From assembly GCA_045650505.1 (NCBI GenBank), contig JAZRRE010000030.1:6966-70965 (forward strand): DNA of 64,000 nt, written 5' to 3'. This stretch comes from Clostridia bacterium (GTDB lineage: Bacteria > Bacillota > Clostridia > Christensenellales > UBA1242). Below the pieces are notes generated by a model, which had not been told where the DNA came from, ran no database searches, and saw only the letters and a program-made list of their open reading frames with translations. How positions within the stretch are numbered: the stretch's first letter is position 1; each line of letters starts with the position of its first letter. Below are positions 52,922 through 62,507 of the stretch, in pieces. A program made the translations under genes and the position numbers.

Positions 52922-52950
52922 TTGACAGTTATGAAATAATATGTTATAAT
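52922..52950 (+). promoter_or_regulatory. consensus sigma-A promoter of the aspS-gatCAB leader
   Basis: TTGACA (52922-52927), 17 nt, TATAAT (52945-52950). Confidence 0.7.
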
Positions 52951-52995
52951 AGTGGCAGTTTAGAGATAAACTAACTAAAAAAAGGAATATATGCA

Positions 52996-53052
52996 ATGAT
53001 TAGAATTATCGATAATAATAACAATAATAATTGCGTAAGCGTCACAAAATAG
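52996..53052 (+). CDS. candidate leader peptide MIRIIDNNNNNNCVSVTK (six consecutive Asn codons)
   Basis: Not in the ORF track. SD AGGA (52983-52986) lies 9 nt before the ATG. Asn codons AAT AAT AAC AAT AAT AAT at 53014-53031, TAG at 53050-53052. Confidence 0.55.
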   Translation: MIRIIDNNNNNNCVSVTK

Positions 53053-53104
53053 TGGGGTTCCTTTTATATTGTTAGTTAACAGATAATTAAAGAAAAAGTT
53101 GATT

Positions 53105-53140
53105 AGCGAAGTGGAAATCCCACTTCGCTTTATTTTTTGC
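53105..53140 (+). terminator. intrinsic terminator (attenuator) between the leader ORF and aspS
   Basis: 10-bp stem AGCGAAGTGG (53105-53114) / CCACTTCGCT (53120-53129), 5-nt loop, then TTATTTTTT. Confidence 0.75.
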
Positions 53141-53165
53141 ACAAAATATTTTAAGGAGAATAGCT

Positions 53166-53225
53166 ATGGTTTATAAACTCGGTAATGCCCTAGCAGGCGA
53201 ATATATAATGACAGACGCCAGATAG
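53166..53225 (+). CDS. candidate 19-aa micro-ORF MVYKLGNALAGEYIMTDAR
   Basis: Strong SD AAGGAG (53153-53158) lies 7 nt before the ATG. The TAG sits in the loop of hairpin GACGCC/GGCGTC (53214-53231). Confidence 0.3.
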   Translation: MVYKLGNALAGEYIMTDAR

Positions 53226-53336
53226 GGCGTCATAAATCAAATAAACACAATCAAAACATACTAAAAATTAAACAACAAACTAAATCGTTTGATTTTTGAA
53301 AACAAAATAAATAAACTTAAAATGGAGAAATGTATT

Positions 53337-54635
53337 ATGAAAACAGAAATTAAGAGTATTGAACTCGAAAAAGAATGTGAAATCTCTGGTTTTATTGAAA
53401 CCACAAGAGAACAAAAAACAATGTTATTTATCGTGCTTCGTGACAGAAGCGGCAAAATTCAAGTGGCTATTGAAAAAGCAAAAATGCCAGAAGTTGCAGC
53501 AAAAGTTGCAAGTCTTTTAAAAGACAGCGTTATTCGTGTTAAAGGTCACGCTGTTTCTGCACCAAACGTAACACTTGGTGGAATCGAGTTTGTTCCAAGT
53601 GAAATTGAAATTGAAAGTGAAGCAGAAAACCTTCCTATCACTGCAGAAAGTTCAATCGACCTTCGTCAAGACTATCGTTGGATTGACCTTCGTGATGAAA
53701 AACGCAGACACATTTTTGAAATCCGTTCATTTGTTGAATCAAAAATGAGAGAGTTCTTTGTGTCTAAAGGTTTCATTGAAATCCACACACCAAAAATCTC
53801 TGCACAATGCAGTGAAGGTGGCGCAGAAGTGTTTGGCATTGACTATTATGGTCAAAAAGCATACCTCACACAAAGCCCACAATTCTATAAACAAATGGCT
53901 ATTGCTTCAGGTTTTGAAAAAGTTTTTGAAATCGGTGCACAATATAGAGCAGAAAAATCTTTCACAGCAAGACACGCAGCAGAAAGCGTTGCCCTTGACT
54001 TTGAAATTGCTGATGTTAAATCACACCACGAAGTTTGTGACACAGAAGAAGAAATGCTTGTCTTTGTGCTTAAAGCAATCAAAGAAAAATATGGTGATTT
54101 AATCGAAAAAGAATTTGGCGTTCCTGTTTTAGTTCCAACAGGCAGAGTTCCAAGATTCAAACTTAAAGAAGTTTTTGAAATTTTTGAAAAAGAATACGGA
54201 ATCAAAACACCAGAAGCTAAAAAGCTTGACCTTGACCCAGATGCTGAAAAACTTATCTGCAAATATGCAGCAGAAAAACTTGGCAGCGAACTTGTGTTCA
54301 TCACTGACTACCCTGCTGAAGCTCGTGCATTCTATTCAAAGAAAGTGAGTGAAGACTCGCTTGATTGTATGTCACTTGACCTTCTCTATCGTGGTTGGGA
54401 AATGAACAGTGGCGCTGTTCGTGAACACAGATATGAAGTTCTTAAAAAACAAATTGAAGAAAAAGGAATCAAAGCAGACCTTATGGCTGACTACCTTGAA
54501 TTCTTCAAATATGGTTGCCCTCCACATGGTGGAATCGGTCTTGGAATCGACAGATTTGTTGCTAAACTTCTTGACCTTCCTAGCATAAAAGAAAGCATTT
54601 TAGTTTTCCGTGGTCCAAGCAGACTTAAACCATAA
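53337..54635 (+). CDS. aspS: aspartyl-tRNA synthetase, archaeal/type-2 form (probably non-discriminating)
   Basis: LTQSPQFYKQ and QYRAEKSFTARHAAE (motif 2), GGIGLGIDRF (motif 3), C-terminal FRGPSRLKP. I prefer ATG 53337 (SD GGAGA 8 nt upstream) over the TTG at 53289. gatCAB follows. Confidence 0.85.
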   Translation: MKTEIKSIELEKECEISGFIETTREQKTMLFIVLRDRSGKIQVAIEKAKMPEVAAKVASLLKDSVIRVKGHAVSAPNVTLGGIEFVPSEIEIESEAENLPITAESSIDLRQDYRWIDLRDEKRRHIFEIRSFVESKMREFFVSKGFIEIHTPKISAQCSEGGAEVFGIDYYGQKAYLTQSPQFYKQMAIASGFEKVFEIGAQYRAEKSFTARHAAESVALDFEIADVKSHHEVCDTEEEMLVFVLKAIKEKYGDLIEKEFGVPVLVPTGRVPRFKLKEVFEIFEKEYGIKTPEAKKLDLDPDAEKLICKYAAEKLGSELVFITDYPAEARAFYSKKVSEDSLDCMSLDLLYRGWEMNSGAVREHRYEVLKKQIEEKGIKADLMADYLEFFKYGCPPHGGIGLGIDRFVAKLLDLPSIKESILVFRGPSRLKP

Positions 54636-60245: not shown

Positions 60246-61493
60246 TTATTTTAAAACTACTTTGATAAATGTTTTCTTTCCTTTTTTGAGAAGAATTGAA
60301 CCATCTTCAAAATCTGCTTCTTTGATAACAAGATTAACATCGGCAACTTTTTCGCCTTTAGCAGAAATGCCACCGTTATCAATCATCTTTCTTGATTCGC
60401 CTTTGCTTGAGCAAAGTTTGGTTTTAACAAGAAGGTCTAAAATGCTGATTCCTTCACCAAGTTCTGCTTTTGAAAGTTCAAATTCAGGAGCATCATTTCC
60501 ACCATCAGTGAAAAGATTTTCACTCATATTTCTAGCAAGAATTGCATCTTCTTCGCCGCGAACAAACTTTGTGATTTCATAGCAAAGTCTCTTTTTAGCA
60601 TTAACAATGTTTTCAGCAATAAGTTCATCAATTTCTTTCATTGGAACGTCTGTGAAAAGCGCAAACATCATTCTAACGCAAGCGTCTGGTGTTTGATAGA
60701 TTCCTTGATAGAAATCATAAGCAGAAATTTTGTCTTTATCAAGCCAAATAGCACCCTTTTCAGTTTTGCCCATCTTTTTGCCTTCTGGAGTCAAAAGAAG
60801 TGGGTTTGTTGCACCAATTAAGGTTGTGTTTGTGCCATTTGCAAAGTTTAATTTTCTTTGAAGTTCAACACCTGCTGCAATATTTCCCCATTGGTCTGCA
60901 CCACCATATTGAAGTTGGCAACCATATTCTTTTGCAAGGTGAACAAAGTCATAAGCTTGCATTGGCATATAACCAAGTTCGAAAAGTGTGAGTCCACCTT
61001 CGTTGATTCTGTTTGCATAAATTTCGTTAGAGAGCATTTTGTTGATGTTAAAATGAACGCCAATTTCTCTCATAAAATCAATATAGTTCAAGTTCTTAAA
61101 CCAATCAGCATTGTTAACAATAACAGCCTTGTTTTCGCCTTCAAAATCTAAAAAGATTGAAAGTGTGCTTTTGATTTTTTCAATATTTGCTTGAACTTCT
61201 TCGTAAGAGAGCATTTTTCTCATTTCGGTTTTGCCTGATGGGTCACCAATTGAAGCAGTTGCACCACCCATTAAAACCAAAACTTTGTGACCTGCTTTTT
61301 GGAATCTGCGAAGAATTGTGTAAGGCACGCAGTGACCAATATGCAAACTGTCTGCTGTTGGGTCGGTTCCTTCATAAAGTGTGATTGGTGTGCCAGATTC
61401 AAGCATTTTTTTCAAGGCTTCTTCATCTGTGCATTGATATAAAAGACCTCTCTCTTTTAATTCGTTATATAAATTTTTATCTACTTTTGTCAT
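60246..61493 (-). CDS. tyrS: tyrosyl-tRNA synthetase
   Basis: GTDPTADSLHIGH (HIGH), KMGKTE (KMSKS-like), C-terminal S4-like domain. I prefer ATG 61493 (SD GAGGAAAGGA) over the track start 61571. Confidence 0.9.
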   Translation of the reverse strand: MTKVDKNLYNELKERGLLYQCTDEEALKKMLESGTPITLYEGTDPTADSLHIGHCVPYTILRRFQKAGHKVLVLMGGATASIGDPSGKTEMRKMLSYEEVQANIEKIKSTLSIFLDFEGENKAVIVNNADWFKNLNYIDFMREIGVHFNINKMLSNEIYANRINEGGLTLFELGYMPMQAYDFVHLAKEYGCQLQYGGADQWGNIAAGVELQRKLNFANGTNTTLIGATNPLLLTPEGKKMGKTEKGAIWLDKDKISAYDFYQGIYQTPDACVRMMFALFTDVPMKEIDELIAENIVNAKKRLCYEITKFVRGEEDAILARNMSENLFTDGGNDAPEFELSKAELGEGISILDLLVKTKLCSSKGESRKMIDNGGISAKGEKVADVNLVIKEADFEDGSILLKKGKKTFIKVVLK

Positions 61494-61631
61494 AATAATT
61501 TTCCTTTCCTCTATATTTTTTGTTTGAAATTTCACCAAAAGTGATTTAACATTACTTGCCCCAAAGGGCATAAGTTTTAATAACTAACAATGATTGTACC
61601 ATACTTTTCTCCAAAAATAAACATTTTTGAC

Positions 61632-61664
61632 AAATAAAAAATTCTGCCTATTTTTATGGCAGAA
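61632..61664 (-). terminator. intrinsic terminator (attenuator) in the tyrS leader
   Basis: Minus strand TTCTGCC (61664-61658) / GGCAGAA (61648-61642), 9-nt loop, then TTTTTTATTT (61641-61632). Confidence 0.65.
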
Positions 61665-61748
61665 ATTAAAAAAACTGCCATAAGCTTTTTTGCTATATGT
61701 CAGTTTCAAGTTTTTATTATTTATCCACACAAAACTCTACATATAGCC

Positions 61749-61796
61749 TTATATGCAGTAGTAATAATATGCAAAAACTGAATTTAAAACTTTCAT
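61749..61796 (-). CDS. candidate leader peptide MKVLNSVFAYYYYCI (four consecutive Tyr codons)
   Basis: Not in the ORF track. SD-like AAGG (61808-61805) lies 8 nt before the ATG. TAT TAT TAC TAC at 61769-61758, TAA at 61751-61749. Confidence 0.55.
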   Translation of the reverse strand: MKVLNSVFAYYYYCI

Positions 61797-61828
61797 AATC
61801 TTCGCCTTTTATTTTGTGTTATAAACTA

Positions 61829-61856
61829 ATGATACCACCAAAACCATATATGTCAA
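61829..61856 (-). promoter_or_regulatory. sigma-A promoter of the tyrS leader
   Basis: Minus strand TTGACA (61856-61851), 16 nt, TATCAT (61834-61829). Confidence 0.55.
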
Positions 61857-61967
61857 TATTTTTCCAGCAACTTTTTTCAAAAAATTTTAAAAACTTTAAA
61901 AACCTGCAATTTGCTTTGACTAAAAACCACATTTAAACATATAATATATGAAGCAAGCGGAGATTTT

Positions 61968-62507
61968 ATGAACACATTTTTGTTTTTGTTTTTAGCATTT
62001 ATTCTTGCAGTGGTCACCCCAACGGTTTTAGTGTTTGCTTTAAAAAAGCACCCTAAAGCACTCAAAATCACAGCCATTATTTTTGCGTGCATTTATTTTG
62101 TGTGTTTGTTTATTGGGACAACTGCAAAGCTTGAAATCTCTGCCGACAAAGTGACTGCTTCTTTCAACTTCACAGAGCCTTGGTTTTCAATCGACTTTTT
62201 GTTTTTAGACTTTTCACTTAAAAATATGTTTGTTAACCTTGTAATGATGTTTCCACTTGGTTTCATTGTTTATGTTTTTACAAACAAAAAGCCATTTCTT
62301 AAAACCGTCATCTTTGCACTCTGTTTAAGTTTGTTTATCGAACTTTATCAGTTCATTTTGCCGATTTACAGGAACACTGAAATCACAGATATCATTTATA
62401 ATGTTTTAAGCGGAGTTGCTTCTGCCATTTATTGCCAAATTTTAAAAATGTATGGAGCGTTTACCCATCACAATATAAACTCATCAAACGACAAGCCACT
62501 TGAATAA
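61968..62507 (+). CDS. VanZ-like membrane protein
   Basis: 4-5 TM segments. ELYQFILPIYRNTEITDIIYNVLSG matches the VanZ family pattern. Confidence 0.65.
   Translation: MNTFLFLFLAFILAVVTPTVLVFALKKHPKALKITAIIFACIYFVCLFIGTTAKLEISADKVTASFNFTEPWFSIDFLFLDFSLKNMFVNLVMMFPLGFIVYVFTNKKPFLKTVIFALCLSLFIELYQFILPIYRNTEITDIIYNVLSGVASAIYCQILKMYGAFTHHNINSSNDKPLE

Follow-up and report, generated by a model that had tools for sequence, protein, structure and literature searches.

We analysed the region upstream of tyrS, the gene for tyrosyl-tRNA synthetase (TyrRS), in a stretch of 64,000 nucleotides (nt) of DNA from a Clostridia bacterium (contig JAZRRE010000030.1), referred to here as the window. Its G+C content is 33%, and its nearest relatives are metagenome-assembled genomes (MAGs) of uncultured gut and rumen Clostridia. 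The tyrS gene occupies positions 60246–61493 on the minus strand; its product of 415 amino acids (aa) carries Pfam domains PF00579 and PF22421, and the homologues are named tyrosine--tRNA ligase. Upstream of it on the same strand lie a promoter, a short open reading frame (ORF) with four consecutive Tyr codons, and a series of alternative hairpins with terminators. A preliminary description of this DNA had listed the promoter, a Shine–Dalgarno (SD)-like AAGG, the 15-codon Tyr ORF, three hairpins (H1 to H3) and one terminator, and each of these was present on the minus strand at exactly the position it had been given. We consider it very probable that together they constitute a ribosome-mediated leader-peptide attenuator, which senses charged tRNA(Tyr) and controls the tyrS transcription that originates at this promoter.

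The Tyr-codon leader of tyrS

The promoter, P1 (TTGACA-16-TGgTATCAT, 61856–61829), scores 11/12, carries a TG ahead of its −10 (extended −10) and is the top site of the region. Across 12 aligned leaders, TTGAC is invariant, the sixth base is A in 11, and the extended −10 (TGnTA) is kept. The leader ORF (upstream ORF 1, uORF1) opens ∼25 nt from the predicted 5′ end of the P1 transcript and encodes MKVLNSVFAYYYYCI in 15 codons (61796–61749; ATG at 61796, TAA stop at 61751–61749). The SD-like AAGG (61808–61805) precedes its ATG by 8 nt, and a purine-rich, SD-like stretch was recognized by eye ∼3–9 nt upstream of the ATG in all 12 orthologous leaders. Codons 10 to 13 are the Tyr codons TAT TAT TAC TAC (61769–61758). 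When the 366-nt leader was shuffled with its dinucleotide composition kept, at least four consecutive Tyr codons in an ATG-started frame arose in 32 of 100,000 sequences (3.2e-4). Likewise, the fold of the 201 nt from 61825 to 61625 reaches −50 kcal/mol, compared with −31.6 ± 3.6 kcal/mol for dinucleotide shuffles (z = −5.1).

Orthologous tyrS loci were drawn from a genome collection, from a metagenome scan and from contigs encoding close TyrRS homologues. The leader device is kept in 12 of the 14 loci whose TyrRS is 82–95% identical to that of the window, and the Tyr run is conserved in these orthologues, as the preliminary description had expected. uORF1 has 15 codons in 11 of the 12 leaders and 17 in the remaining one (L002). 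The run lies near codons 10–14 and comprises four or five Tyr codons (at codons 12–15 in L002), except in L004, which has three at codons 11–13. Third-base changes inside the Tyr codons are exchanges between TAT and TAC, and therefore synonymous; substitutions within the run are Ser (TCT) for the first Tyr in L004 and a Cys inside the run of L169. The N-terminal half of the peptide is variable, without stops or frameshifts, whereas its Tyr run and final two codons are kept (examples from relatives are MKIVNFSVSYYYYCI, MMMTKLFNAFSYYYYCS, MKNTLFTLASYYYCI, MKFVKTFVSYYYYYI, MNVLSSVFAYYYYCI, MKNFNILTAYYYYCI, MKKSFNAVSYYYYYI and MKTLNFAASYYYCYI), and so is the distance of two codons from the Tyr run to the stop. 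The leader element persists to TyrRS identities as low as 82%, while the flanking intergenic DNA diverges.

In ∼250 kb of the relatives' loci, runs of four or more identical residues in intergenic short ORFs with an SD were confined to Tyr ORFs before tyrS and Asn ORFs before aspS. A looser scan of the window listed other runs as well; of the ATG-started ORFs lying in sense shortly before a gene, those of the tyrS and aspS leaders alone matched that gene. A covariance model built from the 12 leaders and run against 445 kb matched only known tyrS leaders and gave no extra attenuator copies, and a JGI/ENA metagenome scan yielded no new leaders, its best match being 77% identical. Short ORFs with three Tyr codons (YYY) before distant tyrS genes (L030, L042, L048, L076 and L089) lie inside coding sequence or are without a terminator, and were treated as chance occurrences.

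From the end of the Tyr run onwards, the leader forms a chain of complementary segments. Segment A (CUGCAUAUA, 61758–61750) runs from the final base of the last Tyr codon through the Cys and Ile codons into the stop. Segment B (GCUAUAUGUAG, 61747–61737) is a partner of A (pause or protector hairpin) or of C (antiterminator), and segment C (AAACUGACAUAUAGC, 61706–61692) is a partner of B or of D (GCUUAUGGCAG with a U7 tract, 61685–61668). The A:B hairpin, which is the H1 of the preliminary description, pairs CUGCAUAUA with UAUAUGUAG (61745–61737); it is part of the minimum-energy fold in 11 of the 12 leaders, with 98% of its alignment cells paired. The minimum-energy fold of L002 pairs the segments differently, yet the L002 sequence fits the same chain. 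The antiterminator B:C (formerly H2) is a perfect helix of 9 base pairs (bp) in the window, formed by 61747–61739 and 61700–61692; over the 12 sequences, 88.6% of it is paired, and two pairs are compensatory, the L002 version being UUGGUGUG with CACACCAA. In C:D, 61706–61692 pairs with 61685–61672 (AAACUGACAUAUAGC/GCUUAUGGCAGUUU), followed by U7 at 61674–61668; four pairs of this helix changed on both sides, and none of 500 shuffles matched the observed covariation. Because a U run directly follows C:D in 11 of the 12 leaders, we regard this hairpin as the conserved intrinsic terminator, T1.

These helices are mutually exclusive: A:B overlaps the end of the ORF and shares bases with B:C, which in turn shares bases with C:D. 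In the 12-sequence alignment, 93.9% of the cells of the terminator conformation are paired, five pairs changed on both sides, and none of 500 shuffles was as good; shifted registers reached 16–54% pairing. Specifically, segments A, B, C and D of L002 have all changed consistently, such that the compensation fits A:B, B:C and C:D simultaneously. Read from the sequences, the core is the classical 1:2 / 2:3 / 3:4 scheme. The preliminary description had proposed such a scheme, and it holds in the form A:B / B:C / C:D; the A:D pairing that had been proposed along with it is not needed.

Seven of the 12 leaders carry a tandem terminator, T2, in which E pairs with F (UUCUGCC/GGCAGAA plus U6; 61664–61636 in the window). 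T2 is the terminator that had been described initially (61664–61642): it is a real hairpin with a U6 tract but not the conserved terminator, which had been missed. The 5′ arm E is complementary to D in all seven T2-bearing leaders, with D:E duplexes of −9.3 to −13.7 kcal/mol compared with a mean of −3 to −4.5 kcal/mol for shuffled E, and the sequences of the two arms vary by leader (UUAUGGCAG/CUGCCAUAA in the window, CUAUGGCAG/CUGCCAUAG in L164, UUUGGCAGA/UCUGCCAAA in L005). In the window, D:E is H3 (61683–61675 with 61662–61654), to which the role of antiterminator had been assigned. The pairing is real and would control T2; in the chain it comes second, the main antiterminator being B:C. Neither T1 nor T2 was listed by a simple terminator scan, their stems falling below its GC or loop rules. 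A long-range helix enclosing the leader ORF, in which CACAAAA (61818–61812) pairs with UUUUGUG (61734–61728) just after segment B, was seen in most minimum-energy folds. This helix was rejected: 287 of 500 shuffles were as good, and it had no covariation support.

Downstream of the terminators lies a second, extended −10 promoter, P2 (TGGTACAAT, 61601–61593). Its TG, T−12, A−11 and T−7 positions are invariant in all 12 leaders, including three that are without the second upstream ORF described below. This conservation supports the earlier suggestion that P2 could provide basal, attenuator-independent transcription of tyrS.

Ribosome position and the choice between hairpins

To mimic the translating ribosome, the mRNA was masked to a point 12 nt past the first base of the codon in the A site. 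A ribosome whose A site holds the last Tyr codon hides segment A and leaves B accessible; two codons (9 nt) later, with the stop codon in the A site, it hides B too. When the transcript was folded before D had emerged, the stalled state formed B:C in all 11 evaluable leaders (−7 to −19 kcal/mol), and C was unpaired with the ribosome at the stop. L002 was left out of this count; its full-length masked fold also forms B:C. In these models, stalling on the Tyr codons favours the antiterminator, and arrival at the stop codon favours the terminator. The proposal of the preliminary description that a Tyr leader, mutually exclusive hairpins and a terminator control tyrS is in line with the conservation, the covariation and the masked folds. 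The structural potential for attenuation is present in the leaders, and from it the following behaviour would be expected.

Transcripts from P1 would start ∼25 nt ahead of the 15-codon ORF. When Tyr-tRNA is plentiful, the ribosome would reach the stop codon, where its footprint hides B; C would then be free for D, and C:D with its U7 tract would terminate transcription, T2 acting as a back-up terminator. If the leader is not translated, A:B and C:D (and E:F) would form, again leading to termination. When Tyr-tRNA is scarce, the ribosome would stall on the last Tyr codons and hide A only, such that B:C could form as soon as C emerges. D, left free, would pair with E; neither T1 nor T2 would form, and the polymerase would continue into tyrS. 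P2 would add basal expression of this essential gene, independent of the attenuator.

Several observations weigh against this reading. Every sequence compared is metagenome-assembled, and translation of the ORF as well as the 3′ ends at T1 and T2 are predictions. Two close relatives, L003 and L166, are without a Tyr leader. The covariation is thin, stems mostly from L002 and concerns close relatives, and is thus supportive rather than overwhelming; B:C consists of just 8–9 AU-rich bp, and the SD of the window (AAGG) is weak. P2 would let part of tyrS transcription bypass the attenuator. Finally, full-length masked folds at equilibrium gave the complete switch in four of the 12 leaders, and C:D stayed the minimum in eight of the 12 even with A masked. 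Equilibrium folding was therefore dropped as a proof of the switch, given that it works in 4/12 leaders as compared with 11/11 evaluable ones for the co-transcriptional version. Because the terminator is the equilibrium minimum in most leaders, the decision must be kinetic, as in trp.

We weighed three other explanations. The need for help towards the antiterminator in equilibrium folds is what one would expect if a trans-acting factor switched the hairpins, be it a TRAP- or PyrR-like protein, TyrRS itself or uncharged tRNA(Tyr) bound to UAY repeats, with the ORF as a by-product. Four contiguous UAY triplets could form a repeat binding site, and protein- or tRNA-mediated attenuation is common in Firmicutes. 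However, such a factor would leave unexplained why SD, ATG, exact ORF length and the two-codon spacing between Tyr run and stop are conserved, the latter being the distance over which the footprint, at first on A only, comes to include B, and why third-base changes in the Tyr codons are synonymous. Moreover, Rfam scans revealed no T-box-like acceptor-binding motif, and a Spirochaetia leader and the aspS leaders (see below) share the ORF logic with unrelated sequences; we judge this explanation very unlikely. The same conservation pattern bears on the idea that P1, short ORF and terminator form a stand-alone gene for a hydrophobic micropeptide or for a trans-acting small RNA (sRNA) of ∼150–190 nt released at T1 or T2, next to tyrS only incidentally. 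The unit does have its own strong promoter and terminators, tyrS has P2, and attenuator RNAs and leader peptides with trans roles are known, as is reported for rnTrpL and peTrpL in Sinorhizobium (PMC7298713). Yet it is the Tyr codons and RNA pairings that are conserved, not the N-terminal half of the peptide, and the unit is located only directly upstream of tyrS. The overlap of antiterminator and terminator is meaningful only for conditional read-through, and D:E complementarity, which ties T2 to the same control, would be pointless in a stand-alone gene, an explanation that we hold to be highly improbable. A trans role on top of attenuation is nevertheless conceivable.

AT-rich genomes yield many short ORFs and palindromes, and promoter-like sites are not enriched overall in the region (10 found, 10.0 expected). 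The short ORF could thus be a chance product of an AT-rich spacer, and the hairpins tandem terminators of an upstream or antisense transcript. The preliminary description had already thought chance an unlikely explanation of the two cognate-codon leaders in the window, and for the tyrS leader the rarity of the Tyr run among shuffles, the fold z-score and, above all, conservation of the element in 12 relatives while the flanking DNA diverges bear this out. In addition, no upstream minus-strand gene needs a terminator here, as the neighbouring gene (61968–62507, plus strand) is divergent. Conservation effectively refutes this explanation, whose probability we regard as close to nil.

A second upstream ORF and the aspS leader

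Beyond the terminators, nine of the 12 tyrS leaders (the window, L001, L002, L004, L162, L163, L164, L167 and L168) contain a second upstream ORF, uORF2. In the window, uORF2 encodes MVQSLLVIKTYALWGK (61612–61552, minus strand) and consists of a strong SD (GGAG at 61612–61609), a 6-nt spacer, an ATG at 61602 and a stop at 61554–61552. Its lone Tyr codon (61572–61570) abuts a GC hairpin, UGCCC-UUUG-GGGCA (61570–61557), of a kind uncommon in such AT-rich sequence, and the message reads UAU GCC CUU UGG GGC. The peptides follow the pattern ..K-T-Y-A-x-x-G.., and in all nine leaders with the ORF the Tyr codon is in frame and directly 5′ of the hairpin. The ORF finder had entered a 441-aa TyrRS starting from an ATG at 61571 (61571–60246, minus strand), which arises from this Tyr codon (U-AUG-CC); the 441-codon in-frame extension exists only where the codon is TAT. 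Since the ATG at 61571 is without an SD and is missing in relatives with UAC, we take 61493 to be the true start of tyrS.

The preliminary description had also attributed a cognate-codon leader to aspS, and this claim held in part. The aspS gene (53337–54635, 432 aa) encodes a non-discriminating aspartyl-tRNA synthetase (AspRS), whose homologues are named aspartate--tRNA(Asn) ligase, and gatCAB follows it in the operon. Its plus-strand leader (52922–53138) contains a TTGACA-17-TATAAT promoter, a uORF1 with a run of Asn codons (MIRIIDNNNNNNCVSVTK, 52996–53052) and a terminator (AGCGAAGUGG-AAAUC-CCACUUCGCU plus U tract, 53105–53138). The leader is conserved, but its codons are Asn codons: a run of six or seven Asn is kept in relatives down to 68% AspRS identity (MIRIIDNNNNNN.., MLMLINNNNNNN.., MIRFINNNNNN..), whereas the single Asp is not, and for this reason we classify the leader as an Asn leader. 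An Asn leader fits a pathway that produces Asn-tRNA(Asn), its codons being cognate to the product of the pathway and not to Asp. In Clostridium acetobutylicum, an Asn-specific T-box is reported (Saad et al. 2012, J Biol Chem 287:20382, as cited in PMC4206432) to control tRNA-dependent asparagine formation (AspRS/GatCAB). Both arrangements tie AspRS-GatCAB to the status of tRNA(Asn) and not to aspartate; the sensor is a T-box in C. acetobutylicum and a leader peptide with six or seven Asn here. A candidate aspS antiterminator, GUGGGGUU after the stop, can pair with the terminator loop and 3′ arm, and masked folding gave a switch in one of four leaders. As a side observation, AAAAGGAA, at the SD of the aspS leader, is complementary to GGUUCCUUUU after the stop, an analogue of the ORF-enclosing helix of the tyrS leader.

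The aspS leaders likewise continue after the terminator with a strong SD and an ATG that open a uORF2, here with one to three units in which an Asn or Asp codon is followed by a GCC hairpin. In the window (53153–53234, plus strand), these units read AAU GCC CUA GCA GGC at 53184 and GAC GCC AGA UAG GGC at 53214; in relatives, the uORF2 region lies at ∼24–150 of L170, 1310–1441 of L171, ∼1382–1438 of L172 and ∼1411–1467 of L173. The peptides are ..GNALAGE..MTDAR followed by the stop (window), SNALAGE..NDAHAGR, TNALAGE..TNALVGD..NDAQIGQ, INALLGE and TNAHGGA. In all 18 modules, the in-frame codon before the hairpin is cognate: Tyr in nine (tyrS), and Asn in six and Asp in three (five aspS-gatCAB leaders). 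Many modules have AAA ACN as 5′ context, giving the form (AAA ACN)-X-GCC-loop-GGC, and a 17-nt stretch of one tyrS module recurs in one aspS module with a single difference, at the first base of the sensor codon. Apart from one terminator, the tyrS and aspS leaders are the only places with GCC..GGC hairpins in the 7.2 kb of intergenic DNA of the window.

If codon X occupies the A site, the mRNA channel of the ribosome would contain precisely the 5′ arm of the hairpin. It is possible, though doubtful at present, that the attenuator is the first of two cognate-codon sensors and that the uORF2 modules represent an undescribed modular stall sensor with post-transcriptional output, retargetable by one codon. 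As to the output, we can only guess at shielding of a nuclease (RNase) site upstream of the hairpin, stabilization of the mRNA or an effect on Rho. A programmed frameshift from uORF2 into tyrS was considered and rejected, as the frame relation and the open stretches differ among relatives. Nor did the leaders compared contain a conserved structure downstream of uORF2 that hides the tyrS SD; only the GC hairpin recurs. All sensor codons of the modules are of the form NAY, perhaps a coincidental feature of the two genes at hand. NAY codons are read by tRNAs that usually carry queuosine. If functional, the combination of codon and hairpin would add a regulatory part that is new and simple to test.

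Relation to T-boxes and to known attenuators

Control by T-boxes has its founding example in tyrS. In the window, an Rfam scan of the leader region (61300–62100) gave no T-box (RF00230) at E ≤ 10, in agreement with the preliminary description, which had seen no T-box hallmarks; a scan of the whole window at E ≤ 0.01 gave no T-box either, its sole match being one tRNA. A T-box motif (GGUGGUACCGCG-like, at most two mismatches) was absent upstream of tyrS in L001, L002, L004 and L005, and was not found by eye in the window or in the remaining leader-bearing sequences, whereas it is present in T-box-bearing relatives. Among the Rfam leader families, only Phe_leader (RF01859) was listed, with 17.8 bits compared with a gathering score of 55 (E = 3.7).

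In contrast, nine relatives whose TyrRS is 68–83% identical to that of the window (L006, L009, L010, L011, L013, L015, L017, L020 and L022) carry Tyr T-boxes upstream of tyrS, with 60–88 bits and E-values of 1e-10 to 1e-17. These T-boxes lie directly upstream of the gene, except in L006 and L009, where intervening sequence separates them from tyrS, and those whose upstream sequence was read have a UAC specifier context (GAAUUACA). All of them score below the gathering score of the Rfam tool (93), such that default scans report nothing; scans at the gathering threshold alone are thus unreliable for asserting T-box absence in this group.

Neighbour-joining of the TyrRS sequences groups the leader-bearing loci into a single clade, which lies among T-box lineages and has the T-box-bearing L015 as sister. 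L003 and L166 are nested inside the leader clade, and we therefore attribute their lack of a Tyr leader to secondary loss. L166 (∼1880–2000) retains just a P2-like extended −10 promoter, and in L003 (∼2900–2975) the promoter is another one, and an unrelated uORF of 24 codons, MDTLFNVIGAIILVPLSYITIGLL, comes with a hairpin of its own. As judged from the tree and the leader sequences, the simplest history is probably one replacement of an ancestral Tyr T-box by a leader peptide in a narrow clade. The preliminary description had gone further and suggested a lineage-wide alternative to T-boxes. This was not borne out: the relatives at 68–83% identity carry Tyr T-boxes, two of the 14 close relatives are without the leader, and two aminoacyl-tRNA synthetase (aaRS) loci of the lineage, tyrS and aspS, were inspected. 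The leader is a clade-specific replacement and not a lineage-wide rule, the wider pattern staying at the level of a hypothesis.

Outside this clade, a Spirochaetia MAG (L044; OY764216.1, 2798–2912), whose TyrRS is 48% identical to that of the window, has a leader with five Tyr codons, MKIINVNSYYYYYSSTNQGLSAR, directly upstream of tyrS. A terminator and an antiterminator follow, both GC-rich; the latter forms solely with a stalled ribosome. This leader has no sequence similarity to that of the Clostridia and is an independent recurrence. A different arrangement was seen in L008 (∼2930–2985), which is without a T-box: a palindromic hairpin (GCAUAUG..CAUAUGC) with a U7 tract immediately precedes the tyrS SD and is crossed by a short ORF, MLKGICFF, which may be another kind of leader.

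The architecture resembles that of well-studied attenuators. The his attenuator of Salmonella and E. coli has six segments, of which A:B, C:D and E:F terminate while B:C and D:E allow read-through. The window and six relatives share this six-segment chain; here, however, C:D has its own U tract, resulting in two tandem terminators, and five relatives have only a four-segment, trp-like core. Attenuation of aaRS genes themselves has been shown or predicted in several cases, in enterobacteria for E. coli pheST with its leader peptide pheM. In Streptomyces, leader-peptide attenuators precede trpS2 and leuS (PMC1262725). With pheST, trpS2 and leuS, the tyrS leader has in common a short ORF of cognate codons followed by antiterminator and terminator hairpins before an aaRS gene (PMC1262725). 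It differs in that its codons are for Tyr, the gene behind it is tyrS and the host belongs to the low-GC Clostridia; it has no sequence similarity to these attenuators, and has a second promoter and uORF2 after the terminator.

Within the Firmicutes, the Bacillus cereus group has His leader peptides before hisZ and before a paralogue of hisS, and these were explicitly noted as a replacement of T-boxes (Naville and Gautheret 2010, PMC2965389), and His attenuators are predicted in some Clostridia and Erysipelotrichales (PMC9413887). The B. cereus group leaders and the one described here represent the same swap, a leader attenuator where relatives use a T-box. However, the former concern histidine and paralogous or biosynthetic genes, whereas here the gene is a single housekeeping tyrS and the swap is dated to one small clade. 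Compared with the tyrS T-box of the Bacillus subtilis type (RF00230), gene, signal (charging of tRNA(Tyr)) and principle (leader antitermination) are the same. The T-box, however, binds uncharged tRNA directly, while here a translating ribosome would read Tyr codons. In the literature searched, we found neither a Tyr-codon leader-peptide attenuator nor attenuation at tyrS by such a leader, and no Rfam family matches. The kind of mechanism is thus known; what is new is the amino acid, the gene and the clade.

Annotators of these genomes should not take a clostridial gene without a T-box to be unregulated. The exchange of a T-box for a leader peptide can be placed on a single branch of the gene tree; the sequences include sisters that have kept a T-box, two relatives that lost the leader secondarily and a spirochaete in which such a leader was reinvented independently. 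The exchange provides a concrete case of RNA sensors for the same signal replacing each other.

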